Below, one piece after another: positions 48,862 through 62,272 of a DNA stretch of 64,000 nt. The position numbers and the translations under genes were made by a program. Under the pieces are notes generated by a model. The model worked only from the letters and a program-made list of their open reading frames with translations. It was not told where the DNA came from and ran no database searches. The stretch is from the NCBI GenBank assembly GCA_009839745.1, contig VXPE01000036.1, positions 4,763-68,762 of the forward strand. The letters run 5' to 3'. The stretch comes from Candidatus Poribacteria bacterium (lineage in GTDB: Bacteria > Poribacteria > WGA-4E > WGA-3G). Position 1 is the first letter of the stretch; the number at the start of each line of letters is the position of its first letter.

Positions 48862-48891
48862 GGCGAGGTTTCTTAACCTCGCCTTTTTTTT
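48862..48891 (+). terminator. intrinsic terminator after the dsRBD gene
   Basis: GGCGAGGTT-tctt-AACCTCGCC followed by T8. Confidence 0.8.
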
Positions 48892-48913: not shown

Positions 48914-48968
48914 GTGTTTTTTTGACATTTTATAAGAAGATGCTATATAATACGAAAGACATATATGC

Positions 48969-49670
48969 TTACGGTTTCCTCCCGACGAAATAGACGGCTG
49001 ATGCCAAAATGTGGGCATCTTTATGTAAGGAAAGTGGTATATCTAAGAGTAGGATTGGAAATGTCAGCCACCCGACAATAAGAGAGATTGTTTTCGCGAG
49101 GAGTAGACTGCCGAACGAACAGACCAGCCCGATATATTCTCGGAAGATCCAGTGCAAAGAGGTCGTTGGACCGGCACAGGGACCACTCTCAAGTTCGGAG
49201 AAGGCGGCACAAAGTTGAACAACGCCCGGCACTGTCCACCGTTGATAATCATGAGGAGAGGCGTGGTAGCCTTGTAGGAACGGGACAGCGAGGCAAATAT
49301 AACCCCCGGGTTTCAGCACACGATAGATCTCCTCGACAACCAGATTCGGCGATTGGACGTGTTCAAGGACGGCTTCAGAGACCACGGCATCGAAGGTCCG
49401 GTCGCTGAACGGCAAAAAGTGCCCATCTGCGACAATATCGACTTCAGGCGTTACTTCGATTTCGAGATTGATGACGTTTGGGGCGCGGCGGCGGTTACCG
49501 GCACCGAGATCCAAGATTCTCGCGTCGGGACCGAGTCGTTGGAGTCGTTTTTTGACACATCGATTCCATCGTGGGGCGGGATACGGGCATCCGATGAGGT
49601 AAGATAAGAACGGATTTTGTCTAAGTTTGCGTTTTATGCGTGAAATCAAATCCGGTTTCGAGTCTGTCAT
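48969..49670 (-). CDS. class I SAM-dependent methyltransferase
   Basis: Motif I ILDLGAGNRR, Methyltransf_11-like core. ATG 49670 preferred, because ATG 49703 would overlap the divergent yihY-like start. Confidence 0.75.
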   Translation of the reverse strand: MTDSKPDLISRIKRKLRQNPFLSYLIGCPYPAPRWNRCVKKRLQRLGPDARILDLGAGNRRRAPNVINLEIEVTPEVDIVADGHFLPFSDRTFDAVVSEAVLEHVQSPNLVVEEIYRVLKPGGYICLAVPFLQGYHASPHDYQRWTVPGVVQLCAAFSELESGPCAGPTTSLHWIFREYIGLVCSFGSLLLAKTISLIVGWLTFPILLLDIPLSLHKDAHILASAVYFVGRKP

Positions 49671-49678
49671 AAGATACG

Positions 49679-50911
49679 ATGATACATAACCTTTCTGAAA
49701 CATACAAGGGATATTTCCGCGATGCTCGGGGGTCTGCTTTGCGTCTCGGCGTGAACGTCTGGCATCAATTCATGGGGCATAAATGTCTCCAGCAGGCATC
49801 GTCGTTGGCGTTTAATACGTTGTTATGTCTTGTGCCGTTGTCGGCAGTTGCGCTGTTTTTACTGAAAACATTTGGTGTTGTGGAAGATGGCAATTCGCCG
49901 TTAATTGCGGTGCTCCGTGATAACTTCCTGCCGCGCTATAGTGCTGAGGAAATTGTATCAGAACTTTCAGGATTTGCCAATAGAAATCTTGGTGGACTGA
50001 GTGTTGGCGGGTTTCTCCTGTTCCTGCTGGTCTCGACGATGCTATTCATGTCGGTGGAGCAGCATTTTAACGATATTTGGGGGGCACGGCGGCGGTTACC
50101 GGTGGTGCAAGCGTTCCAGAAATACGCTGTTTTCTATACACTGCTCTCCGTGGGACCGCTGTTGATTTGGCTCTTCTTTTCGACAGCTACCAACTGGGTG
50201 TTTGGTCATGTGTTCCCATGGGTGTTGGTCTACTGTCTGTTTTTCTTGATGTATATTGCCATGCCGAATACGTTTGTGAAGTGGAGTGCGGCACTGCTGG
50301 GTACACTTGTTGCTGGGACGCTTTTCCAGATCGCCAGGATCGCCTTTGGGCGTTATCTTGAGTTGCTGTGGCAGAACTATAGCGACATCTATGGTGCAAT
50401 GGCGATGTTGATTACCTTTGCTATCTGGACATACGCGGCGTGGGTGGTGATTTTGCTTGGTGCGGAGGTCTCGAATTCTGTTCAGCATTTCCGTCAGCAG
50501 GATGCCGAGAGCGGTCAGTTTCACTATGCGGCCAACGGTTATTTGAACGCTCCGGGTGTTATTACGTTGTTTCTGATTGTAGCGGAGCGCTTTGCTAAAG
50601 GCGACGGAGCGTGTTTGGCAGAAGAGATTGTTGCACGTTCGGGTGTTTCGGAGGAGGTTGTGCACCAGAGTTTTGAACGGTTTAAGGCGGCGGGGTTAAT
50701 CTATGAAGTTGAAGGGGACACGAACGGGTATCTCCCGGCGCGTGCGTTAGAGAAGATTACGGTGGCAACGCTTGTGGATGCGGTTGAGGGTGAGATGACA
50801 ACGCATTTTGTGCGCGGAATATCGTCTGAGTCGGGTGCACGTGTGTTGGGGAGGCTTCAGGAGTCTCAGCGTGAGTGTTTGGATCAGGTTACGGTCGCGT
50901 CGTTGTTGTGA
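49679..50911 (+). CDS. YihY/BrkB family membrane protein with soluble C-terminal domain
   Basis: ASSLAFNTLLCLVPL...YGAMAMLITFAIWTYAAWVVILLGAEV typical of YihY (formerly RNase BN) proteins. Confidence 0.75.
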   Translation: MIHNLSETYKGYFRDARGSALRLGVNVWHQFMGHKCLQQASSLAFNTLLCLVPLSAVALFLLKTFGVVEDGNSPLIAVLRDNFLPRYSAEEIVSELSGFANRNLGGLSVGGFLLFLLVSTMLFMSVEQHFNDIWGARRRLPVVQAFQKYAVFYTLLSVGPLLIWLFFSTATNWVFGHVFPWVLVYCLFFLMYIAMPNTFVKWSAALLGTLVAGTLFQIARIAFGRYLELLWQNYSDIYGAMAMLITFAIWTYAAWVVILLGAEVSNSVQHFRQQDAESGQFHYAANGYLNAPGVITLFLIVAERFAKGDGACLAEEIVARSGVSEEVVHQSFERFKAAGLIYEVEGDTNGYLPARALEKITVATLVDAVEGEMTTHFVRGISSESGARVLGRLQESQRECLDQVTVASLL

Positions 50912-52739
50912 GATCCGGTGAAAATTCGCTGGCTTTGACGTAATATAGAAATCCGATACACATCTCGTCTGTCGTTTTTTCACCCCAACCAACAGGGATC
51001 GGTGGATCATGGGGGTTGGCTGGGTTTTCCGCGGAATTATCGAAATGCGCGACGAGATCGACACGGGTGCCAGCCGGAAAGAAAAGCGGCTCGCGATAGT
51101 GATAGACATCCTGCCAATTGAAATCCCAATCCTGGATCCAGATGAGGTCATGTTTATCCCCAGATGGCGTTATGGCAACAAGCCGCATGTCGCGCCCAAG
51201 GAGGTGCATGTGCGGCATCGTTGCTAAGAGGTAAACGTCTTTTTTAAACGTTTCCGATGCCAAAACCTCATACCAATCTTCACCGGCAGGGATAACGAAA
51301 TCGCTGTTAATTGCGTCTCCGATACGCAATTTGGCGGTTTCTGCGGTTTTGGAGAAATATAACCCCAACCGCGAACGATCGCGTTCAAGATGTCCGGTGC
51401 GATAGTAATGCACTTGCATGACGATGTCGGCCCCTTTCGGTAGGAGATAACCGACACCCTCCGGTAGGACCAATGGTGTAACACCCGGCGCCCAACCACC
51501 AACTGTCCCTTCACTATCAAATCCAGGTCCTGTCCCCTCTGTAACATAGCCCGGTTTGGGGTCCTGCGCGTCGAGTTTACGCGCTTCGCCGTTTACGTCT
51601 AAGTAGGCGATGACGTGATGTACGGTTTTGCGGTTGCCGGGTTGGACATCAACGGCTTGGACGTACATGTCCGTCTCGAAGTTAGTGGGTATAATGAACT
51701 GCCGATATTCGTCTTCGCCTTCGGGTTCAATTTCATATTCGACTGGCATTTCAGCGATCCAATCGGGTTCACCGAGTGCCCAACTGTCAGGGAACTCTGG
51801 TGCCGGTGGGATGGAATCAAGATCGCCTGCAGGTGCCCCGGCTTCCACCCAGTGTGCGATCACCTGGATCTCGGTATTTGTGAGTTGCCGTCCGTTTTTG
51901 AAGTCCCCGTAGCCGGGTGCGGGTTTCCACGGTGGCATGAGACGTGCCTGTGTATATTCAGCGATTTCGGTTGCCCACGCCTTTGCGTCGCTGTAATCGG
52001 TGAGCGTGAAGGGGGCGACTTCGCCGTGTCGATGGCACGTCTGGCAATTCTTCTGGAGGATCGGTGCGATGTGCTGACTATAGGTAATCTCTGTGGGGAG
52101 ATCGGTTTCGGGGAGATGGATCGTGCATCCGAACGCCGGTGTCTCCTGCACGGGGATAAAGGTATCGGTGTGTATCGCGAGAAGGGCATCTTGTAGGTAG
52201 TGGTGCTTGACGCGTGGCTCGTAGCGGTTATCATCAATGGCACCGCGGTAGGTGATCCGACGGGTTGTATCAACGATAACAGCCTGCGGTGTCATCGTTG
52301 CGCCGAGAGCACGTGCGATTTTGCCGGTTGTGTCCTTCACGACAGAGAAGGGATAATCTGCTTTGGTGATGTAGTTCTTTACGTCGTCTTCGGAATCGTT
52401 TTCATTGGCGTAGACTGCGATGAAAGTGGTATTTCGAGGTGCGAATTCAGCATGTAACCGTTTCAGGCGCATCGTATAGCGTTGTGCGACTGGGCATTCG
52501 GTTGCGAGGAACGCGAAGACAACGGGTCCCTGTGCGGTGAGGGTATCTAAATTATGTGTCTCGTTGTGGAGTGTCGTGAAGGTGAGACGCGAAATTTTTG
52601 TGCCGATGGGAACGTTGCTCGGTTGTAAGGATGCCTCTTGGATAACGCGATGTTTTTTTGTGATTTTGTATTCGGACGCGGTGTGTCCCGCGAAGGGGAG
52701 TACAAGGACCAGAAAAAGCGTTAGTAGATACGACTTCAT
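50889..52739 (-). CDS. secreted redoxin (thioredoxin-like) - CxxCH - copper type II ascorbate-dependent monooxygenase (PHM/DBH)-like fusion protein
   Basis: Signal peptide; AhpC/TSA-like VVFAFLATECPVAQ; ILQKNCQTCHR; Cu-ligand pattern TVHHVIAY, VMQVHYY, MPHMHLLG, DEMCIGF. Confidence 0.7.
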   Translation of the reverse strand: MKSYLLTLFLVLVLPFAGHTASEYKITKKHRVIQEASLQPSNVPIGTKISRLTFTTLHNETHNLDTLTAQGPVVFAFLATECPVAQRYTMRLKRLHAEFAPRNTTFIAVYANENDSEDDVKNYITKADYPFSVVKDTTGKIARALGATMTPQAVIVDTTRRITYRGAIDDNRYEPRVKHHYLQDALLAIHTDTFIPVQETPAFGCTIHLPETDLPTEITYSQHIAPILQKNCQTCHRHGEVAPFTLTDYSDAKAWATEIAEYTQARLMPPWKPAPGYGDFKNGRQLTNTEIQVIAHWVEAGAPAGDLDSIPPAPEFPDSWALGEPDWIAEMPVEYEIEPEGEDEYRQFIIPTNFETDMYVQAVDVQPGNRKTVHHVIAYLDVNGEARKLDAQDPKPGYVTEGTGPGFDSEGTVGGWAPGVTPLVLPEGVGYLLPKGADIVMQVHYYRTGHLERDRSRLGLYFSKTAETAKLRIGDAINSDFVIPAGEDWYEVLASETFKKDVYLLATMPHMHLLGRDMRLVAITPSGDKHDLIWIQDWDFNWQDVYHYREPLFFPAGTRVDLVAHFDNSAENPANPHDPPIPVGWGEKTTDEMCIGFLYYVKASEFSPDLTTTTRP

Positions 52740-52786
52740 ACAGAACTCTTGCTATTTCAGGAGCGGTAGCATCAGCAGAAGCGGTA

Positions 52787-52815
52787 ATTATAAGGGCAGC
52801 ACAAGCAAGTGCCAA
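52787..52815 (-). promoter_or_regulatory. proximal sigma70 promoter of the redoxin-PHM-like gene (TTGGCA-N17-TATAAT)
   Basis: Minus strand cTTGGCActtgcttgtgctgccctTATAATtacc, about 48 nt upstream of ATG 52739. Confidence 0.5.
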
Positions 52816-53157
52816 GATTACAATTAAACTTGTTCAGGAAAATGTCCACTTATTAGACAACATTACTAATTTTCCTCCATTTAAATCAAACTAAAAAACA
52901 TTCGTACCAAACACCGTGGGGCAGTAGGGATGCGTGCCCCCGCACACTTCACATTGTGTGCTTTCTTGTCAAACAGCAAGAACAGATTTTCAGGGATGAA
53001 ATCTATTCTGAACTAACCTTTGGTGCGTGTTATTGAAGGCTGTGAGGTTAGGGAGCCTCTCTACCAGTAAAGGTAGGTGTCTTCGGAACACGCTTGGAAA
53101 TTTAGGTTTGGAGTATCTTTTATAGATTATGCCAAACCACTTGCATAAACGTTGTTA

Positions 53158-53185
53158 ATTGTAAACGAGTTACGAAAAAAGTCAA
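53158..53185 (-). promoter_or_regulatory. island promoter P1 (TTGACT-N16-TACAAT)
   Basis: Minus strand aagacTTGACTtttttcgtaactcgttTACAATtaac; paralogous to P4. Confidence 0.45.
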
Positions 53186-53259
53186 GTCTTTTTTAGCGGG
53201 ATCGGAAATCGCTCAAATTTTAGAATTCAGGAAGTCCGTTCTACCACAGTTATGTAATT

Positions 53260-53288
53260 ATTATACTACATTTGTAATGCAGTGTCAA
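53260..53288 (-). promoter_or_regulatory. island promoter P2 (TTGACA-N17-TATAAT)
   Basis: Minus strand aTTTGACActgcattacaaatgtagTATAATaatt. Confidence 0.5.
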
Positions 53289-53367
53289 ATTTTTCTTCAA
53301 AAAAATGTGTAGTGGGTTTTTGTTGGGTTTCGCTAACCCCCTACCCAACCTACGTTACACGTTATTA

Positions 53368-53396
53368 ATTATACCGTAGGCTGTATTTTTTGTCAA
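53368..53396 (-). promoter_or_regulatory. island promoter P3 (TTGACA-N17-TATAAT, A-tract upstream)
   Basis: Minus strand aaaTTTGACAaaaaatacagcctacggTATAATtaat. Confidence 0.5.
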
Positions 53397-53496
53397 ATTT
53401 TTTTGAAAAAATGTTTTCAGAGGTGGAGCGTTCGGATTCTCGGTTTCGGTGAGGATTCGGTCTCCATGCCTTCTATGCCCTTTATTAACACTCATA

Positions 53497-53525
53497 ATTG
53501 TAAAATAGTTACGAAAAAAAGTCAA
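53497..53525 (-). promoter_or_regulatory. island promoter P4 (TTGACT-N17-TACAAT)
   Basis: Minus strand tagtgTTGACTttttttcgtaactatttTACAATtatg. Confidence 0.45.
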
Positions 53526-53548
53526 CACTATTTTTTCGTATATTTGGA

Positions 53549-53577
53549 ATTCTACAGAAATTGGGTATTTTTGTCAA
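53549..53577 (-). promoter_or_regulatory. island promoter P5 (TTGACA-N17-TAGAAT)
   Basis: Minus strand tacTTGACAaaaatacccaatttctgTAGAATtcc. Confidence 0.45.
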
Positions 53578-53642
53578 GTATTTTTTTTCAACAGGGTGCG
53601 AAAAACGCGTATTTCGGTGTTTTTAGGGTTGAATCGATATTA

Positions 53643-53671
53643 ATTATAGCGTAATGGATGTTTTTTGTCAA
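53643..53671 (-). promoter_or_regulatory. island promoter P6 (TTGACA-N17-TATAAT, A-tract upstream)
   Basis: Minus strand aaaaaaTTTGACAaaaaacatccattacgcTATAATta. Confidence 0.5.
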
Positions 53672-53700
53672 ATTTTTTGTCTGAATCGTGGATTACGCGG

Positions 53701-53730
53701 ATTATCGCGAGCACAGTTCGTTCCCACAAG
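53701..53730 (-). repeat. REP-like hairpin, degenerate copy of 47101-47128
   Basis: Minus strand TTGTGGGAACGAACTGTGCTCGCGATAAT. Confidence 0.55.
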
Positions 53731-53800
53731 TTAGCAATCAGCAGGCAGCAATCTCCTGTTCTGAAAATCCTGATTCTGACGAATTCGCTGACGGGCGAAT

Positions 53801-53829
53801 TTGCGAAGTCCCTACACCTATGCTATAAT
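53801..53829 (+). promoter_or_regulatory. candidate sigma70 promoter of the UPF0182 gene (TTGCGA-N17-TATAAT)
   Basis: aTTTGCGAagtccctacacctatgcTATAATgtc, then GTAGGAGG SD and ATG 53851. Confidence 0.5.
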
Positions 53830-53850
53830 GTCTTGTAGGAGGCATTCATT

Positions 53851-56760
53851 ATGACAGCAGATCTTGCTATCGCACAGTTACTTTTAAGCACACTCTTTGT
53901 CGGTGTTACCTTAATATGGGGTATCCTTCGGTATCGACGGAGCGGTTCCTGGCGGCGTGGCGTTCATAACAAATTGCAGGCGTATCTGCTCTGGACGTTG
54001 AGCGTGCTGATTGCGATGAGCTGCTTTTTCCCTTTGGCGCATCTCTATACAGAACACCTCTGGTTTGAACACGTTGGCTACGCTGCTGTGTTCTGGGGGC
54101 TCCAGAAGGTCCGGTGGGGCATTTTCGGTGTCTGTTTCATTGTCGCTGCTGGATTTATGAATGCCAACACGGCAATCGCTAACATGTTATGCCCAGAATC
54201 CCGCGAGTTTCGGCGCTGGACACATACGCAGACCTTCTCTTTCCATCGGATGGTCATCTGTATCACGTTGATTGCGGCATTTCTGCTCGCAGGACCGATG
54301 CTTCTATTAGACGATATAATGCTTCGGTACCTGAATCAATCAGATGTGGTAGCGGTAGAGAGTTCTCTCCACTTCGGAATGGATCGGAATTTCTACCTTT
54401 TTAGTTTCCCACTCCACCGATGGGTGAGTCTCTGGGTAGAGATAACGCTGTGGGTAACGTGTATTGTCGTTGGGTTGTTATATAATTTCTATTACCGTCG
54501 GGACGCCCACACAATGGCACGTGTGAAACGACATATTATCTTTCACGGCTCGGCTTTATGGATATTGCTACTGATCGTCAACGGGTGGCGGAGCTATGTG
54601 AACCTCTGGGACAAGGTATATACAAAGCCCCTGACGAACGGGCTGCAGACCCTCCATGGATTATTTTACATGGATTTTCACCTTGCAGGTGCTACGAAAA
54701 TTTATTGCGGCGTGCTGATCGGCATCGCAATCGTTATCGTGATTAACATCTTCTGGCGGAAACGCCTGTTGTGGTATGTGTCTGGGGCGATATGGGGATT
54801 GAGTTACGTGTTGTTGATCCAAGCATATCCGCTGGGTCTCCACGTGGCACGTATGCGTGTGGAACCTTTTCTCAAAGAGGGTCGGTACTTGCAGAGGCAC
54901 ATTGAAGAGACACGCCGCGCCTTTGATCTCGATGAGATCGTGAGGGTTGACCGCGAGCCTGGGACCGCAACACTGGAAATGATAACGGAAAATGCCGAGG
55001 TCAAGAAGAATATCCAAATTTGGGATCGACGCGTACTGTATGAGGCCCTCCGAGAGACACAGATTAAACCGCATTACAACTTCCATCCGTATACCGATGT
55101 CGACAGATATACAGTAGATGGTGAATATCGGCAGGTCCTGATAGCCGCCCGTGAAATTGATCCCGGTCCTGAGATTACGGGGTGGGATCGCCTGAAAACG
55201 GATCTGCGCTCTTTTACGCACGGCTATGGCGTGTGTGTCGCCCCCGTGAACGAGTTCGTTGGCGAGGGTTTACCGAAACTCTGGGTCAAGGATACACCGA
55301 TCGATAGTGCTTACAAGGAACTGACAGTAGAATATCCGCAGATTTACTACGGTGAGATGATCCGCAATTACATGATTGTGAACACCGATCGCGATGCAAA
55401 TAGTGCTGAACGCAGGCTGGACCCCGAAAGTGACGAGGGTGTTACGGAAACCCCAGAAATACCTGAATGGATGCAGCATACATACGCCGGGGACGGAGGC
55501 GTGTCTTTAGGTGGTTGGTTCCGTCGACTCTGTTTCGCGCTTCGATTCGATTTCATCCCCATCCTCATCTCAGAGAAGTTGACACCGGAGAGCCGAATCA
55601 TGTTCCGACGAAGGATCGGTACCCGTCGAAATGACCGCCTCGTCAAAGACCGTGTTTCATACATAGCCCCCTTCCTGAATTACGACCCCGATCCGTATAT
55701 TGTGATTAACGATAAACAGTTGTATTGGATCATCGACTTCTATGTAACGAGCCGGTATTATCCGAACGCACAGATGTATGTGGACGATAAGACGCAACTC
55801 ACAGACAGTGAGCTATATGAGGAGCCGGATTTTGACACATTCAACTACATCCGAAATGCTGGTGTCGCTGTCGTTAACGCTTACACCGGTGCGGTGGATT
55901 TCTATGCCATCAAGAAAGATGAAGTAGACGAAACCGTGATGCGGACTTATCAGAAAGCGTTTCCGAATCTCTTTAAATCACTCTCGGAGATGCCGGACGG
56001 GTTGGAGGCGCACTTGCGGTACCCGGATTACCTGACCCGGATTCAAGCGAGACTCTACGGCGATTATTACCGGCAAGCGAGCGGGTTCTATGATAATACG
56101 AACCCTTGGTCGATACCGAAAGAGGCATACTACTCCTCACAAGCCGATCAGGAAATGATGCCCTATTATGCTATGTTGAAGTTGCCGGGTGAGGAAAAAG
56201 TTGAGTTTGTGAATGTGATTCCATTCGCGCCGCAAGATCGCGAGAAACAGTTGAAGGCATGGATGGTGGCACGCTGCGATCAACCGCATTACGGTGAGCG
56301 TATCGTTTATGTGCTCCCTGAGAACGCAGGGATCGCCGGACCGACACAGGTGGAAGACGATATTAATAAAAAGACCGGAGATCAGCAACGCGGTTGGCAA
56401 ACGGCAAACGATGTGATTCGGGGCAATCTACTGATTATTCCGATTGAGAACGCGCTGTTCTATCTTGAGGCGATTTACCTGCAAGCGAAAAAGCCGGAGG
56501 GTGAAGATGACGACAAGCCGCGGCGTCCGAAGTTAGAGATGGTGGTCCTGAAGGCAGGATCAAATGAACTTGAGGCGGTACAGGCGCAGACATTTGATGA
56601 GGCGTTGAATATGCTGCTGTTGGGAATCCCAGCGAATGGTGAAACACTCACAAAAGGTGAGAAACCGTCAACGTTAGCGGAGTTAGTCCAACAATATCGG
56701 GAGCGGGAAGCCGATAGCAATCAACTCCTTGAGCAGATCCTTGAGAAGATGGTGGAATAG
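53851..56760 (+). CDS. UPF0182 family membrane protein
   Basis: About 970 aa; N-terminal multi-TM region, large C-terminal domain with YYAMLKLPGEEKVEFVNVIPFAP, GNLLIIPIENALFYLEAIYLQA typical of UPF0182. Confidence 0.8.
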   Translation: MTADLAIAQLLLSTLFVGVTLIWGILRYRRSGSWRRGVHNKLQAYLLWTLSVLIAMSCFFPLAHLYTEHLWFEHVGYAAVFWGLQKVRWGIFGVCFIVAAGFMNANTAIANMLCPESREFRRWTHTQTFSFHRMVICITLIAAFLLAGPMLLLDDIMLRYLNQSDVVAVESSLHFGMDRNFYLFSFPLHRWVSLWVEITLWVTCIVVGLLYNFYYRRDAHTMARVKRHIIFHGSALWILLLIVNGWRSYVNLWDKVYTKPLTNGLQTLHGLFYMDFHLAGATKIYCGVLIGIAIVIVINIFWRKRLLWYVSGAIWGLSYVLLIQAYPLGLHVARMRVEPFLKEGRYLQRHIEETRRAFDLDEIVRVDREPGTATLEMITENAEVKKNIQIWDRRVLYEALRETQIKPHYNFHPYTDVDRYTVDGEYRQVLIAAREIDPGPEITGWDRLKTDLRSFTHGYGVCVAPVNEFVGEGLPKLWVKDTPIDSAYKELTVEYPQIYYGEMIRNYMIVNTDRDANSAERRLDPESDEGVTETPEIPEWMQHTYAGDGGVSLGGWFRRLCFALRFDFIPILISEKLTPESRIMFRRRIGTRRNDRLVKDRVSYIAPFLNYDPDPYIVINDKQLYWIIDFYVTSRYYPNAQMYVDDKTQLTDSELYEEPDFDTFNYIRNAGVAVVNAYTGAVDFYAIKKDEVDETVMRTYQKAFPNLFKSLSEMPDGLEAHLRYPDYLTRIQARLYGDYYRQASGFYDNTNPWSIPKEAYYSSQADQEMMPYYAMLKLPGEEKVEFVNVIPFAPQDREKQLKAWMVARCDQPHYGERIVYVLPENAGIAGPTQVEDDINKKTGDQQRGWQTANDVIRGNLLIIPIENALFYLEAIYLQAKKPEGEDDDKPRRPKLEMVVLKAGSNELEAVQAQTFDEALNMLLLGIPANGETLTKGEKPSTLAELVQQYREREADSNQLLEQILEKMVE

Positions 56761-61144: not shown

Positions 61145-61172
61145 TTGACACCGTTAAAATTTATGGTAAATT
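61145..61172 (+). promoter_or_regulatory. candidate sigma70 promoter A (TTGACA-N16-TAAATT)
   Basis: tcTTGACAccgttaaaatttatggTAAATTtacg. Confidence 0.4.
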
Positions 61173-61194
61173 TACGTAAAAATGAAGTTTTCTC

Positions 61195-61223
61195 TTGACA
61201 AAAGAGACTAATTTTCATATAAT
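61195..61223 (+). promoter_or_regulatory. consensus sigma70 promoter B (TTGACA-N17-TATAAT)
   Basis: tcTTGACAaaagagactaattttcaTATAATtttg. Confidence 0.55.
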
Positions 61224-61618: not shown

Positions 61619-62272
61619 ATGACAAAATTGTTTAGAACCTTCGCTTTATTGCTGGCAGGCTTGTTCGCCCTTTCGCTGATAGTCGGCTGCGGTGGCGATG
61701 ATGATGGTGACGGTGAAGCAGCTGCACCAGCCAACTTCGTAAGTGCTGCCCCGCCGGGCGGTGAGATTGCCGCGAATGGAAGTATTACAGTTACCTTTGA
61801 CAACGCCCCCGCTGATGTCACGGTAAGTGCCGGTACTGTCACAGTTGCCGGTAAAACAGCGACTATCGCGGGTCCTTTCACCCCTGGTCCGCTCGCGTTG
61901 ACGATCACTTGGGCTGATGGAACGCAAGCACTGAACTATACGGTCACCGCACCGGATACCGATCCACCGGCAGTCACGGGTGGCACCGTCTCAGATGGTG
62001 ATAAAGATGTCGATCCCGAAGCTATCAACACCGCCGCAGCGATTGAAATCGAGTTCAGTGAAGACGTTTCTGGTAACGTCGCACTTCAGACCGAAGGCGG
62101 CGATGATGTCGGTTGGCTTGGTAAAGTCGAAGGCAACAAAGCGACGCTCGAGCTTGTCAAAGGTAAAGAGATTGGCAACGAGACGACTTATGTTATCGCA
62201 GGTAAAGTCTCAGACGCTGCTGGCAACTCTACTGATGTCAGTGTAACCTTTGTAACCAAGGGTAAAGAGTAA
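61619..62272 (+). CDS. lipoprotein with Ig-like (SbsA_Ig/Big-type) repeats
   Basis: AAGGAG SD; lipobox LIVGCGG; two units of the type SPADGATDV-like (PPGGEIAANGSITVTFDNAPADV; VSDGDKDVDPEAINTAAAIEIEFSEDV). Confidence 0.6.
   Translation: MTKLFRTFALLLAGLFALSLIVGCGGDDDGDGEAAAPANFVSAAPPGGEIAANGSITVTFDNAPADVTVSAGTVTVAGKTATIAGPFTPGPLALTITWADGTQALNYTVTAPDTDPPAVTGGTVSDGDKDVDPEAINTAAAIEIEFSEDVSGNVALQTEGGDDVGWLGKVEGNKATLELVKGKEIGNETTYVIAGKVSDAAGNSTDVSVTFVTKGKE

Follow-up and report, generated by a model that had tools for sequence, protein, structure and literature searches.

The AT-rich island upstream of gene 50889-52739, in a 64,000-nucleotide stretch of Candidatus Poribacteria DNA (the window), appears to be a conserved tandem promoter battery with a structured leader, resembling the region in front of an S-layer gene and now orphaned; we give this reading about an even chance. 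Four to seven sigma70 promoters of the stable-RNA class would be stacked head-to-tail before one transcription unit. That unit would start with a long structured leader, U5, and ancestrally, as in many relatives, would run from U5 into a large gene for a secreted LTD-domain protein. The anatomy of the locus, its conservation and synteny, the gene loss and the lack of classical terminators can be read directly from the sequence. Beyond the original prediction, which had described a promoter island in a gene desert, our analysis points to a structured leader after P1, the remnant of a secreted-protein gene, and a one-base origin for what had been taken as the normal promoter of gene 50889-52739. 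If the promoters fire as predicted, the array would be among the largest natural stacks of near-consensus, UP-bearing promoters known. It has been kept across deeply diverged members of an uncultivated phylum, and would then offer a natural test case for addition versus interference between tandem promoters.

Anatomy and conservation of the promoter array

Six tandem, co-oriented, near-consensus promoters had been predicted here, and all six were recovered on the minus strand between 53158 and 53671 as discrete sigma70-type matches spaced 52-129 bp apart, three of them matching at 12/12. The AT-richness described for the island was also confirmed, with a GC content of 0.34-0.42 inside it and ~0.50 in the flanks. 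On the minus strand the array consists of the following elements.

53671-53643, minus strand: P6, TTGACA / TATAAT, spacer 17, 12/12; element 53643..53680, with an A-tract at 53672-53680
53577-53549, minus strand: P5, TTGACA / TAGAAT, spacer 17, 11/12; element 53549..53597, with an A8 tract
53525-53497, minus strand: P4, TTGACT / TACAAT, spacer 17, 10/12; element 53497..53535, with an A6 tract
53396-53368, minus strand: P3, TTGACA-17-TATAATTAAT, 12/12; element 53368..53412, with a T6-C-A7 tract in the full UP-element layout
53288-53260, minus strand: P2, TTGACA / TATAAT, spacer 17, 12/12; element 53260..53306, with a T7-GAAG-A5 tract
53185-53158, minus strand: P1, TTGACT / TACAAT, spacer 16, 10/12; element 53158..53194, with an A6 tract
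53195..53637, minus strand: inter-promoter segments, after P6 (53598-53637), after P4 (53408-53491), after P3 (53305-53362) and after P2 (53195-53254)

Background density, proposed as a check when the island was first described, was determined at several scales. The 2.6-kb region scanned holds 11 promoter matches compared with 4.0 +/- 1.9 in shuffled sequence. On both strands of the whole window there are 30 matches of at least 10/12, 6 of which fall on one strand within the 514 bp of the island, a density that exceeds the local background ~18-fold. In 1.11 Mb of Poribacteria sequence, matches on both strands amounted to a background of 0.65 per kb, and every cluster of at least four co-oriented matches within 700 bp was this island.

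The individual promoters carry features of their own. P6, with a predicted transcription start at ~53636, has an identity of 0.81-0.84 in clade A versus 0.30-0.45 in neutral flanks, and P5 is conserved at 0.79-0.89 in the same clade. The spacer of P4 contains an invariant CGTAAC and includes the best-conserved 20 nt of the whole island (0.98). CGTAAC recurs in the spacer of P1, which has a predicted start at ~53151 and a conservation of 0.86-0.89. The proposed paralogy of P1 and P4 was upheld by repeat families D3 and D4, the likeness of the two including promoter and 5' end, and this promoter type is confined to the island. P3 and P6 are alike in their promoter part. An inverted repeat, CCTACG/CGTAGG, flanks the -10 of P3 on both sides, and P2 has a palindromic spacer (CTGCATTACAAATGTAG) and an upstream tract conserved at 0.95.

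In the UP-element consensus, positions of about -38 to -44 are occupied by an A-tract and those of about -45 to -51 by a T-tract. Both tracts are present at P3 and P2, and the proximal A-tract at P6, P5, P4 and P1; together with near-consensus -35 and -10 hexamers and 17-bp spacers this is, judged on base composition and position, the layout of UP-element promoters. The likeness to the tRNA-Leu promoter pointed out earlier is real, as that promoter reads AAAAAAATTTGACA-N17-TATAATTAAT and has the same design as P3. By these features the upstream promoters belong to the stable-RNA class. Consensus promoters as such are ordinary in this genome and are found, for example, at the S21 gene and tRNA-Leu.

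Read as intrinsic terminators of the preceding units, the T-runs were mostly rejected. The distance of the T- and A-tracts to the next -35 is constant at 9-10 nt and hairpins beside them are mostly missing, and the T-runs are therefore better read as UP elements. A stable hairpin adjoins the run in only ~2 of the 68 promoters that have one, and P5, P4 and P1 are without any upstream T-run. No terminator-like site was detected on the minus strand between 52000 and 54600. The 'GTAG' hairpins were unsupported as a REP-like repeat family of the window, the one related hairpin found being the terminator at 48864-48881.

From their sequences we infer that these promoters would be active and, acting additively, would yield very high transcription. 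The -35 of P5 lies only 52 nt upstream of that of P4, so that the polymerase footprints of the two overlap. Polymerase interference should be expected between strong tandem promoters this close together, and it counts against an additive battery.

The inter-promoter segments bear on a possible, if tentative, reading that formed part of the original prediction, namely an array of separate small-RNA genes. Every promoter would then have its own product, an abundant and structured RNA of just 50-130 nt or, for P1, the 255-nt U5. These RNAs would act in trans, for example as regulators or protein sponges, and they, not a cargo gene, would be the reason why the locus is maintained. Each unit has its own promoter, of the stable-RNA class and like that of tRNA-Leu. 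Each segment is able to form a hairpin, and the segments are conserved at 0.46-0.66, above the 0.30-0.45 of the neutral flanks, within clades and in part between them. Helices in them are preserved, with some compensatory changes: the U4 helix TAAGAG/CTCTTA shows two double changes, and the U2 helix GGAG/CUCC is found in both clades. In several segments the 5' end is also able to pair with the 3' end directly before a U-run. The sequence of the U5 hairpin is frozen, and battery and U5 are conserved whatever the integrity of the cargo gene. However, the short segments fold no better than their shuffles (z from -2.4 to +0.4), a cross-clade consensus fold of the P4/U2 segment gave no structure and worked within clades only, and the P3 segment is wholly different in clades A and B. 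The units do not look like sibling RNAs either, since likeness is limited to P1/P4 (promoter and 5' end) and P3/P6 (promoter), the transcribed parts differ, and a common 5' end is restricted to P1 and P4. The fixed phase of the T-runs to the next -35, the scarcity of hairpins beside them and their lack at P5, P4 and P1 all weigh against separate genes, as do a P5 transcript that would have just ~17 nt before the P4 -35 and the 63-bp units of L130, which end in an A-run. With a promoter for each unit on one side, and no terminators and partly non-conserved segments on the other, the small-RNA array stays alive in weakened form. A 16-aa ORF after P4 was rejected as a small peptide; its SD spacing is improper and it is not kept in clade B.

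Comparison with related genomes, also proposed at the outset, revealed the array in conserved synteny in ~40 Candidatus Poribacteria species, with order and strand unchanged. A global alignment of whole intergenic regions was too gappy, and unit-wise nhmmer searches with MAFFT alignment were used instead. In clades A and B the AhpC-like gene and UPF0182 flank the ordered array; more distant arrays are those of L121-L132, and relatives carry 4-7 promoters per array. Four-fold-site identity among clade-B species is 0.40-0.59 and hence saturated, yet their promoters still match at 11-12/12. Within the island, conservation is highest in the promoters (0.8-0.98 versus 0.30-0.45 in the flanks). L130 contains a tandem duplication of 63-bp units in 2.7 copies with an A-run at the unit end, which suggests that promoter number changes through local tandem duplication. 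The sequences diagnostic of the island occur in 1-2 copies per genome, always at this locus. Relatives have IS and REP-like insertions near the locus. On the strength of this distribution, the island is neither foreign DNA nor a product of chance.

Two of the origins first suggested for the array were a xenogeneic promoter island and a mobile promoter-carrying module, taken here as horizontally acquired, AT-rich and silent DNA full of promoter-like sites, of the E. coli type, and as a transposable promoter cassette. The GC content of 0.34-0.42, the insertions nearby in relatives and the local duplication of promoter units would agree with such an origin, but the vertical synteny in ~40 species, the discrete sites on one strand with no dense overlap on both strands, and diagnostic sequences present 1-2 times per genome at this locus only make it exceedingly improbable. 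Both the xenogeneic island and the mobile module were rejected, local tandem duplication as in L130 being the one kind of movement that does occur.

It is very unlikely that the promoters are kept for polymerase binding or DNA topology near UPF0182, as an RNA-polymerase sink, insulator or supercoiling device; nothing speaks specifically for this explanation, of which the sink and the insulator had also been offered. Full-consensus promoters with UP elements do bind polymerase very tightly, the promoters are more conserved than the transcribed parts and persist where the cargo is lost, and in the window the UPF0182 promoter (53801-53829) points away from the island. However, insertions of 1-3 kb separate UPF0182 from the island in L006, L007, L008, L014, L018 and L020, and the array is not adjacent to UPF0182 in L044/L130, whereas U5 is always kept directly downstream of the array. 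Moreover, promoters of consensus quality are nothing special in this genome, as the S21 gene and tRNA-Leu illustrate. A replication origin was considered and rejected because the window has a positive GC skew throughout, and no convincing DnaA boxes were found.

The predicted U5 leader RNA

Directly after P1, which would drive it, lies U5, a candidate new structured RNA predicted by folding and absent from Rfam. The features named below are those of the computed fold and the alignment.

52893..53152, minus strand: U5, structured leader/non-coding RNA, ~255 nt, MFE -75 kcal/mol, z = -3.4
53143-53152 with 52898-52907, minus strand: closing helix of the 5' and 3' ends of U5, followed by U6
53132-53138 with 53105-53111, minus strand: helix GGTTTGG/CCAAACC
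53087-53093 with 53025-53031, minus strand: optional domain closed by GCGTGTT/AACACGC
52942-52961 and 52918-52940, minus strand: two 3' hairpins
52977..53021, minus strand: near-invariant core of 45 nt, AAAGGTTAGTTCAGAATAGATTTCATCCCTGAAAATCTGTTCTTG, conservation 0.95-0.99
53000-53009 with 52979-52988, minus strand: core stem of 10 bp, loop of 9-11 nt

Homologues of U5 fold with z = -2.7 and -4.8. In the alignment of 30 sequences (A1) the named helices are 97.5% paired, with changes that are almost solely wobble-compatible; covariation in these helices did not rise above that of shuffles, because the columns hardly vary. A 27-mer of the core hairpin is found exactly in 41 stretches, all of them from Poribacteria or sponge metagenome-assembled genomes, at 1-2 copies per genome and in a single copy in the window.

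The earlier statement that no known RNA was recognisable held up against Rfam 15, which gave no match at the gathering threshold in the window and nine related loci. Lowering the threshold to E <= 10 over 52700-53900 returned chance-level matches only, and the motif 'Poribacteria-1' was not among the Rfam matches. With no Rfam match, 6S, SRP, tmRNA, RNase P, Y-like RNAs and riboswitches were rejected. ARAGORN identified tRNA-Leu at 1995-2081 only, and a literature search turned up no work on non-coding RNAs or LTD proteins of Poribacteria.

U5 is followed within ~30 nt by GGAGG and ATG. In the computed fold its 5' end is paired and GGAGG lies exposed after the structure, as expected of a stabilising leader. 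By analogy with S-layer gene leaders, the U5 structure would make the mRNA more stable and keep the SD accessible; each transcript of the array would begin with, or quickly form, a hairpin, and U5 would pair its own 5' end.

The same fold is also what a conserved, aptamer-like element upstream of a coding region would look like, and U5 might instead be a riboswitch-like or protein-controlled attenuator. The choice would then be between termination at the U-tract before the SD and read-through, the upstream promoters would be secondary, and the regulated target would be the cargo gene in relatives and the AhpC-like gene here. A conserved multi-helix RNA directly upstream of SD and ATG is in keeping with this, as is the closing helix with its U6 ~15 nt (in the window, 16) before the SD. 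The repeated GGGAAC/GUUCCC segments of clade B have possible alternative pairings, and the hairpin is invariant, as is often seen in elements that contact a ligand or protein. We nevertheless consider attenuation unlikely. The closing helix with its U-tract is present in clades A and D, where it is weak and AU/GU-rich, and is reduced to ~4 bp before the U-tract in clade B, and no clear pair of terminator and antiterminator is conserved across clades. No Rfam family matches even at E <= 10, and a single gene family is associated with U5, so that no regulon is apparent from which a ligand might be guessed.

The cargo gene and the gene downstream

In relatives, U5 forms the 5' leader to a gene for a secreted LTD-domain protein of 900-1500 aa, whose signal peptide and C-terminus are conserved and whose middle is hypervariable. 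At least 17 copies of U5 are followed by ORFs of 300-1518 aa that share the signal-peptide start and contain LTD domains; intact versions of 926-1052 aa follow U5 in L006, L007, L010, L011 and L012. DNA conservation over the stretch of SD, ATG and signal peptide is 0.87-0.97. NCBIfam returned no match for the cargo protein, which is not a recognised S-layer protein. It is probably a major, repeatedly lost surface component of sponge symbionts, and as such would bear on host recognition and phage pressure.

Only a remnant of this secreted-protein gene is present in the window, upstream of an intact gene.

52745..52878, minus strand: cargo-gene remnant, with ~40 frameshifted codons left
52874-52878 and 52861-52863, minus strand: SD GGAGG and ATG of the remnant
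52787..52815, minus strand: TTGGCA-17-TATAAT, 11/12, inside the signal-peptide remnant
50889..52739, minus strand: AhpC/redoxin + cytochrome c + Cu-monooxygenase-like gene, 616 aa (Pfam)

The remnant runs for nine codons (MLSNKWTFS) before a 1-nt frameshift leads to a stop at 52834-52836, and the remaining signal peptide (TSLIVILALACAALIITASADATAPE...) can be read down to the start of the AhpC-like gene. The description of the region as a gene desert thus needs correcting: it holds ~40 frameshifted codons from the start of a gene that has been lost.

Loss of the cargo has left little trace on the promoters. Beside truncated cargo the battery has a mean of 4.5 promoters with a mean score of 11.28 (25 copies), and beside intact cargo 3.9 promoters with a mean score of 11.40 (17 copies). 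Such independence is unexpected if expressing the cargo is the battery's sole job, and a battery equally intact without cargo suggests a function of the RNA itself or of genes that lie downstream. It would be explained if the locus were kept for its RNA, with U5, with or without the short transcripts, as a highly expressed, trans-acting and Poribacteria-specific molecule, or if it were a swap-in expression site. On the former version U5 would, for example, titrate a protein or guide a process at the symbiont surface; on the latter, hypervariable surface-protein bodies would be swapped by recombination into a fixed cassette of promoters, leader and signal peptide. We regard this pair of possibilities, taken jointly, as doubtful. 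The conserved promoter/leader/N-terminal cassette is duplicated in L004, L009, L010, L047 and L050.

The sequence shows how the battery and leader, on the reading we prefer, came to lose their gene. The cargo has been cut down to its ~40 frameshifted codons, a second deletion, of 181 nt, has taken the promoter of the AhpC-like gene, and a one-base change has made a fresh predicted promoter inside the remnant. Relative to L002, 181 nt are missing that hold the AhpC-like gene's own promoter and SD. The supposed normal promoter at 52787-52815 does exist as an 11/12 match, but it is a one-base novelty in dead coding sequence: one extra base creates its TATAAT, which is therefore present in the window only, L001 and L002 having CCCT-TAAT. 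L001 and L003 share the 181-nt deletion, lack the new -10 and keep the AhpC-like gene intact. In L001, P1 is the sole promoter-like site upstream of that gene, with no terminator between them.

Gene 50889-52739 is the first intact gene downstream of the battery. Given the cargo deletion and the 181-nt deletion, the battery now most likely makes an orphan U5 RNA and, via read-through, the mRNA of this gene. In the one expression table found, that of the single-cell genome SAG 3G (L020), the peroxiredoxin and an adjacent 300-nt ORF stand at only ~0.2x housekeeping level; these values speak against very high transcription, but are weak evidence because they come from cross-species mapping and CDS-only counts. 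The locus may represent a case of promoter capture, in which two deletions place a peroxiredoxin-like gene under a foreign promoter battery and a one-base change then makes a new predicted promoter within dead signal-peptide sequence.

Comparison with known systems

At the sap locus of Campylobacter fetus, highly variable protein bodies follow a conserved cassette made up of promoter, leader and N-terminal coding sequence. The Poribacteria locus likewise has a conserved 5' cassette before a variable body, duplicated in some genomes, but no silent cassettes, invertase or recombination switching were found there. Sibling small-RNA clusters, such as Listeria LhrC1-4, Pseudomonas PrrF1/2 and the Nostoc NsiR1 repeats, consist of homologous units that each end in a Rho-independent terminator. 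The island resembles them in its short head-to-tail units, each with its own promoter, within one intergenic region; it differs in having units that for the most part share no sequence and in lacking classical terminators.

The rrnB P1-P2 promoters are arranged in tandem and have consensus or near-consensus hexamers and UP elements of A-tract plus T-tract, as described by Estrem and Gourse. With promoters of this rrn/tRNA type the island has the hexamers, UP tracts and tandem arrangement in common, and its tRNA-Leu promoter is of the same design. In contrast to them, it has AT-rich discriminators and up to seven tandem copies, and its product matches no known stable RNA in Rfam.

The 'promoter islands' of E. 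coli go with genes gained by horizontal transfer, are almost silent in transcription and are bound by H-NS; AT-richness and an unusually large number of promoter-like signals are what they share with the present locus (Panyukov and Ozoline 2013, PMC3661553). The Poribacteria array differs in its discrete one-strand sites and in the vertically conserved synteny of AhpC-like gene, island and UPF0182.

The closest parallel lies with genes for S-layer and cell-wall proteins. The cwp operon of Brevibacillus brevis 47 reportedly has five tandem promoters. In S-layer genes, strong or tandem promoters occur together with a stem-loop in the 5' UTR that has a stabilising effect, and Lactobacillus slpA has promoters P1 and P2 together with a stabilising 5' UTR (PMC10221546). 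In the same way, the Poribacteria locus has co-oriented promoters stacked within a few hundred bp before a large secreted-protein gene, as seen in relatives, and a long structured leader that includes the 5' end and leaves the SD exposed afterwards. It departs from these genes in the number and quality of its promoters, four to seven, most of them at or near full consensus and with UP-like tracts, and in a leader of 200-340 nt with a sequence-invariant hairpin. Unlike theirs, its cargo is an LTD-domain protein and not a known S-layer former, and its battery is kept where that cargo is truncated and, in the window, gone.

Stacked promoters in the 52740-53850 intergenic region

A promoter scan recovered all six tandem, co-oriented, near-consensus sigma70-type modules of the original prediction, each in its predicted place on the minus strand (53158-53671; P6 first and P1 last in the direction of transcription). 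The array, here called the battery, occupies the intergenic region 52740-53850 between two divergent genes and is followed by a structured RNA, U5:

50889-52739, minus strand: 616-aa AhpC/redoxin and Cu-monooxygenase-like gene (AhpC-like gene), left flank
53851-56760, plus strand: 969-aa UPF0182 gene, right flank
about 53152 to 52893, minus strand: U5 structured RNA, from computed fold and alignment

P6, P3 and P2 score 12/12, P5 11/12, and P4 and P1 10/12. The 2.6-kb scanned region holds 11 promoter matches, against 4.0 +/- 1.9 in shuffles, and of the 30 sites that score 10/12 or better on either strand of the whole window, 6 fall within the island's 514 bp. The island is AT-rich as described (GC 0.34-0.42 vs ~0.50 in the flanks), P1 is a paralogue of P4, and P3 and P6 have a common promoter context. 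The proposed likeness to the tRNA-Leu promoter also held, as the site at 2094-2122 is built in the same way (A7-TTTGACA-N17-TATAATTAAT). Near-consensus promoters are usual in this genome, for instance a 12/12 site at the S21 gene, so the anomaly is their stacking rather than their quality.

In P1/P4-type promoters (53158-53185, 53497-53525) the spacer always contains CGTAAC, and the predicted transcripts start with ACAACGTT or GTGTT; GTAAC-N16/17-CGTT in these promoters resembles an ECF-sigma promoter overlaid on the sigma70 promoter. Immediately 5' of P6 is a 9-nt repeat, ATCGCGGATT (2.6 copies, 53685-53709), weakly conserved in relatives. The UPF0182 promoter (53801-53829, plus strand; TTGCGA-17-TATAAT with an upstream TG) is kept across clade A (blast hits 53798-53848) and still adjoins UPF0182 where insertions shift the island 1-3 kb away.

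Two further sites were observed in the window. A 12/12 promoter (TTGACA-18-TATAAT, 48922-48951, plus strand) lies just after a bidirectional terminator hairpin (48864-48881, GGCGAGGTTTCTTAACCTCGCC between A- and T-runs), is antisense toward the 3' end of a methyltransferase gene (48969-49703, minus strand), and is a possible source of an antisense or small RNA. Tandem promoters scoring 10/12 and 12/12 (61145-61223, plus strand) and a ~400-nt leader precede a lipoprotein-like 217-aa ORF (61619-62272). On the same contig of the single-cell genome SAG 3G, the supplement of PMC5087111 lists a 657-nt pfam13205 (Ig-like) CDS as the sixth most expressed CDS in sponge metatranscriptomes.

Conservation of the array and its design

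The UPF0182 protein assigns the window to Candidatus Poribacteria, a group of sponge symbionts. Related genomes yielded 78 loci via the UPF0182 protein, three genomes being 98% identical. The island's intergenic DNA can be aligned well past close relatives, and the order AhpC-like gene, island, UPF0182 is kept in many species. Every locus scanned has 4-7 co-oriented promoter sites at the homologous position, always on the same strand, and wherever four or more matches point the same way inside 700 bp in the 1.11 Mb of Poribacteria sequence scanned, the cluster is this island. The unit order P6/P5, P4, P3, P2, P1 is common to the two main clades, A (the window, L001-L012, L030, L045, L047, L050 and L076) and B (L013-L023, L037, L041, L042, L051, L069, L072 and L073). 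A P1/P4-type-specific pattern (TTGAC-N6-8-CGTAAC-N3-TTTACAAT), run on 185,579 species genomes, matched 43 stretches, 40 of them in Poribacteria or sponge metagenome-assembled genomes at 1-2 per genome, and uncovered additional, more distant arrays.

Clade-B species share only 0.40-0.59 identity at the four-fold degenerate sites of UPF0182, which are thus saturated, yet the promoters hold 11-12/12. This persistence, together with the conserved array, excludes a chance, foreign or mobile origin. The original prediction had offered a xenogeneic promoter island, which is inconsistent with the synteny and the same-strand order in many species, and a mobile promoter-carrying module, which is inconsistent with 1-2 copies per genome.

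Part of the battery of a distant Poribacteria genome (L130:7220-7389) is a tandem repeat with a 63-bp unit, present in 2.7 copies at 89% identity. Every unit comprises a full promoter and a perfect palindrome, TCAGGAATTCCTGA, and downstream of the battery come a minimal U5 and a 1126-aa cargo gene that is intact.

The likelier design is a stack of promoters serving a single transcription unit. If each upstream unit were instead a separate small-RNA gene, as the original prediction suggested, the conservation of the segments after P4, P3 and P2 (0.46-0.66 vs 0.30-0.45 in neutral flanks) and their retained helices, which show a few compensatory changes, would be accounted for. However, sibling small-RNA clusters consist of homologous units, each with its own terminator, whereas the minus strand of the 2.6-kb region has no terminator-like site. 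T-runs that might end the P4 and P3 transcripts keep a constant distance of 9-10 nt to the next -35 and are almost never preceded by a stable hairpin, and P5, P4 and P1 have no upstream T-run. In a full UP element, a T-tract precedes an A-tract at these same positions; the T-runs read better as parts of one, and the tRNA-Leu promoter shows some of this layout. The predicted P5 start is just 17 nt ahead of the P4 -35, the P3 segment is unrelated between clades although the P3 promoter is identical, and three promoter units of L130 are 63-bp tandem repeats with an A-run at the end. The best-conserved parts of the island are the promoters themselves (0.8-0.98).

With stacked promoters, inverted repeats within or around P2, P3 and P1/P4 would form hairpins in read-through RNA. 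P2 has a palindromic spacer (53266-53282), kept although the clades differ in sequence, P3 has CCTACG/CGTAGG around its -10 (53349-53380), and P1 (53175-53194) and P4 (53515-53534) have an A6/T6 pair around the -35. These could be such hairpins or operator sites.

The U5 leader and its cargo gene

U5 has a computed fold of -75 kcal/mol (z = -3.4) in which the 5' end pairs with the segment directly before a U6 run; homologues gave z = -2.7 and -4.8. A 30-sequence alignment defined these parts:

conserved 5' segment
helix GGUUUGG/CCAAACC enclosing a variable insert
optional domain with closing helix GCGUGUU/AACACGC
52977-53021: near-invariant 45-nt block forming a 10-bp hairpin
3' hairpins, differing by clade

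The three named helices are 97.5% paired, compared with 25-50% when the partners are slid. Read on the minus strand, nearly all changes are wobble-compatible (UA to UG, GC to GU), and two base pairs have double changes. Covariation measures for these helices showed no excess over the shuffle control because the alignment columns scarcely vary. The modelled fold is therefore supported, not proven. The species-genome collection has exact matches to the 27-nt core in 41 stretches, 1-2 per genome, all from Poribacteria or sponge metagenome-assembled genomes. The original prediction had recognised no known RNA and proposed an Rfam search, which returned no family for the region.

The optional domain (53040-53075, minus strand; also L004, L045 and L047) contains GGTAG-led hairpins, e.g. 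GGTAGATGCGGTTTTGAACCGCATC in L004, which look like REP-type insertions. The islands of L008 and L045 contain the start of an IS200-like transposase.

In the window, GGAGG lies 16 nt past the U6 run, followed by an ATG (52861-52863) that opens only nine codons (MLSNKWTFS) before a stop. The same start in L010 begins a 937-aa ORF, MLSNKWTFSLTSLIVILAFALAAPAMAQ..., and full-length homologues follow U5 in L006, L007, L011 and L012. Over the full set of loci, ORFs of 300-1518 aa come after at least 17 copies of U5, and truncated ones after about 25-40, depending on counting. The long proteins share a signal peptide, LTD (lamin-tail) domains and a ~120-aa C-terminus (...NAGFNILRS...KPNVVYYYQIEDVSLDG...AGKLTTTWGDLKSQD); their middles are mutually unrelated, and NCBIfam gave them no name. 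U5 is thus the leader of this cargo gene, which is missing in the window. With one base restored, the remaining signal peptide can be read to 52745; the gene body is lost. The predicted gene desert thus holds this frameshifted remnant of a lost gene.

The cargo gene was disrupted independently in separate genomes, by an IS605 TnpB-like insertion in L047 (L047:2747-3916) and by an IS with another transposase in L018 (L018:1421-2452); in several clade-B genomes it is reduced to ~0.6 kb. The U5 and signal-peptide cassette is duplicated in L004, L009, L010, L047 and L050, with copies 1-3.5 kb apart; the locus is a rearrangement hotspot. In clade B (L042:4570-4700, minus strand; L015, L017, L041 and L072) a decayed cargo 3' end, ...WGELKLQD*, is ~90% identical, as are the next ~60 nt and a strong terminator (GCAGGCG..CGCCTGC plus T6), in species with saturated synonymous sites. 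This could be a conserved 3'-UTR element.

Probable downstream capture and relation to known systems

Relative to L002 (L002:4692-4890), the window (52740-52815), L001 and L003 lack 181 nt that held the AhpC-like gene's own promoter (TTGACC-17-TATATT) and SD. The 11/12 site at 52787-52815, originally taken for the gene's normal promoter, is a novelty inside the dead signal-peptide sequence, present in the window alone because one extra base turns CCCT-TAAT into CCCTTATAAT. Judged from sequence, promoter loss appears to have been followed by promoter birth. L001 has the deletion, an intact AhpC-like gene and no new -10; over the 450 nt ahead of that gene no promoter-like site other than P1 is present, and nothing resembling a terminator lies between the two. 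This is indirect evidence that battery transcription may read through U5 into the AhpC-like gene.

Batteries beside truncated cargo genes average 4.5 promoters (mean score 11.28, n = 25) and those beside intact ones 3.9 (11.40, n = 17). This equal integrity possibly means that all cargo losses are recent, that the battery works for genes downstream too, as it now does in the window, or that the RNA, above all the frozen U5 hairpin, is itself functional. The SAG 3G (L020) expression table, which covers CDS only, gives ~0.2x housekeeping level for the peroxiredoxin and an adjacent 300-nt ORF, and so speaks neither for nor against strong transcription of the non-coding part.

Taken together, the original observation is confirmed and its interpretation finds partial support. 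The island is a promoter battery that is conserved in, and specific to, Poribacteria, and it comes with a new structured leader RNA; in the window it lacks its cargo gene and appears to have been captured by the peroxiredoxin-like (AhpC-like) gene. There is a real chance of an independent role for the RNA.

E. coli 'promoter islands' are linked to horizontally acquired genes, H-NS-bound and near-silent (PMC3661553). The battery was tested for association with horizontally acquired DNA and showed none, and its sites are discrete and on one strand rather than crowded. The nearest analogue is found in genes for S-layer and other major wall proteins; the cwp operon of Brevibacillus brevis reportedly has five tandem promoters. 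At S-layer genes, strong or tandem promoters are paired with a stem-loop in the 5' UTR, which makes the mRNA more stable and the ribosome-binding site accessible (PMC10221546). The battery differs in promoter number and perfection, U5 in leader size and its sequence-invariant hairpin, and the cargo is an LTD protein. The battery is best read as a variant of a known arrangement, tandem promoters with a stabilising leader.
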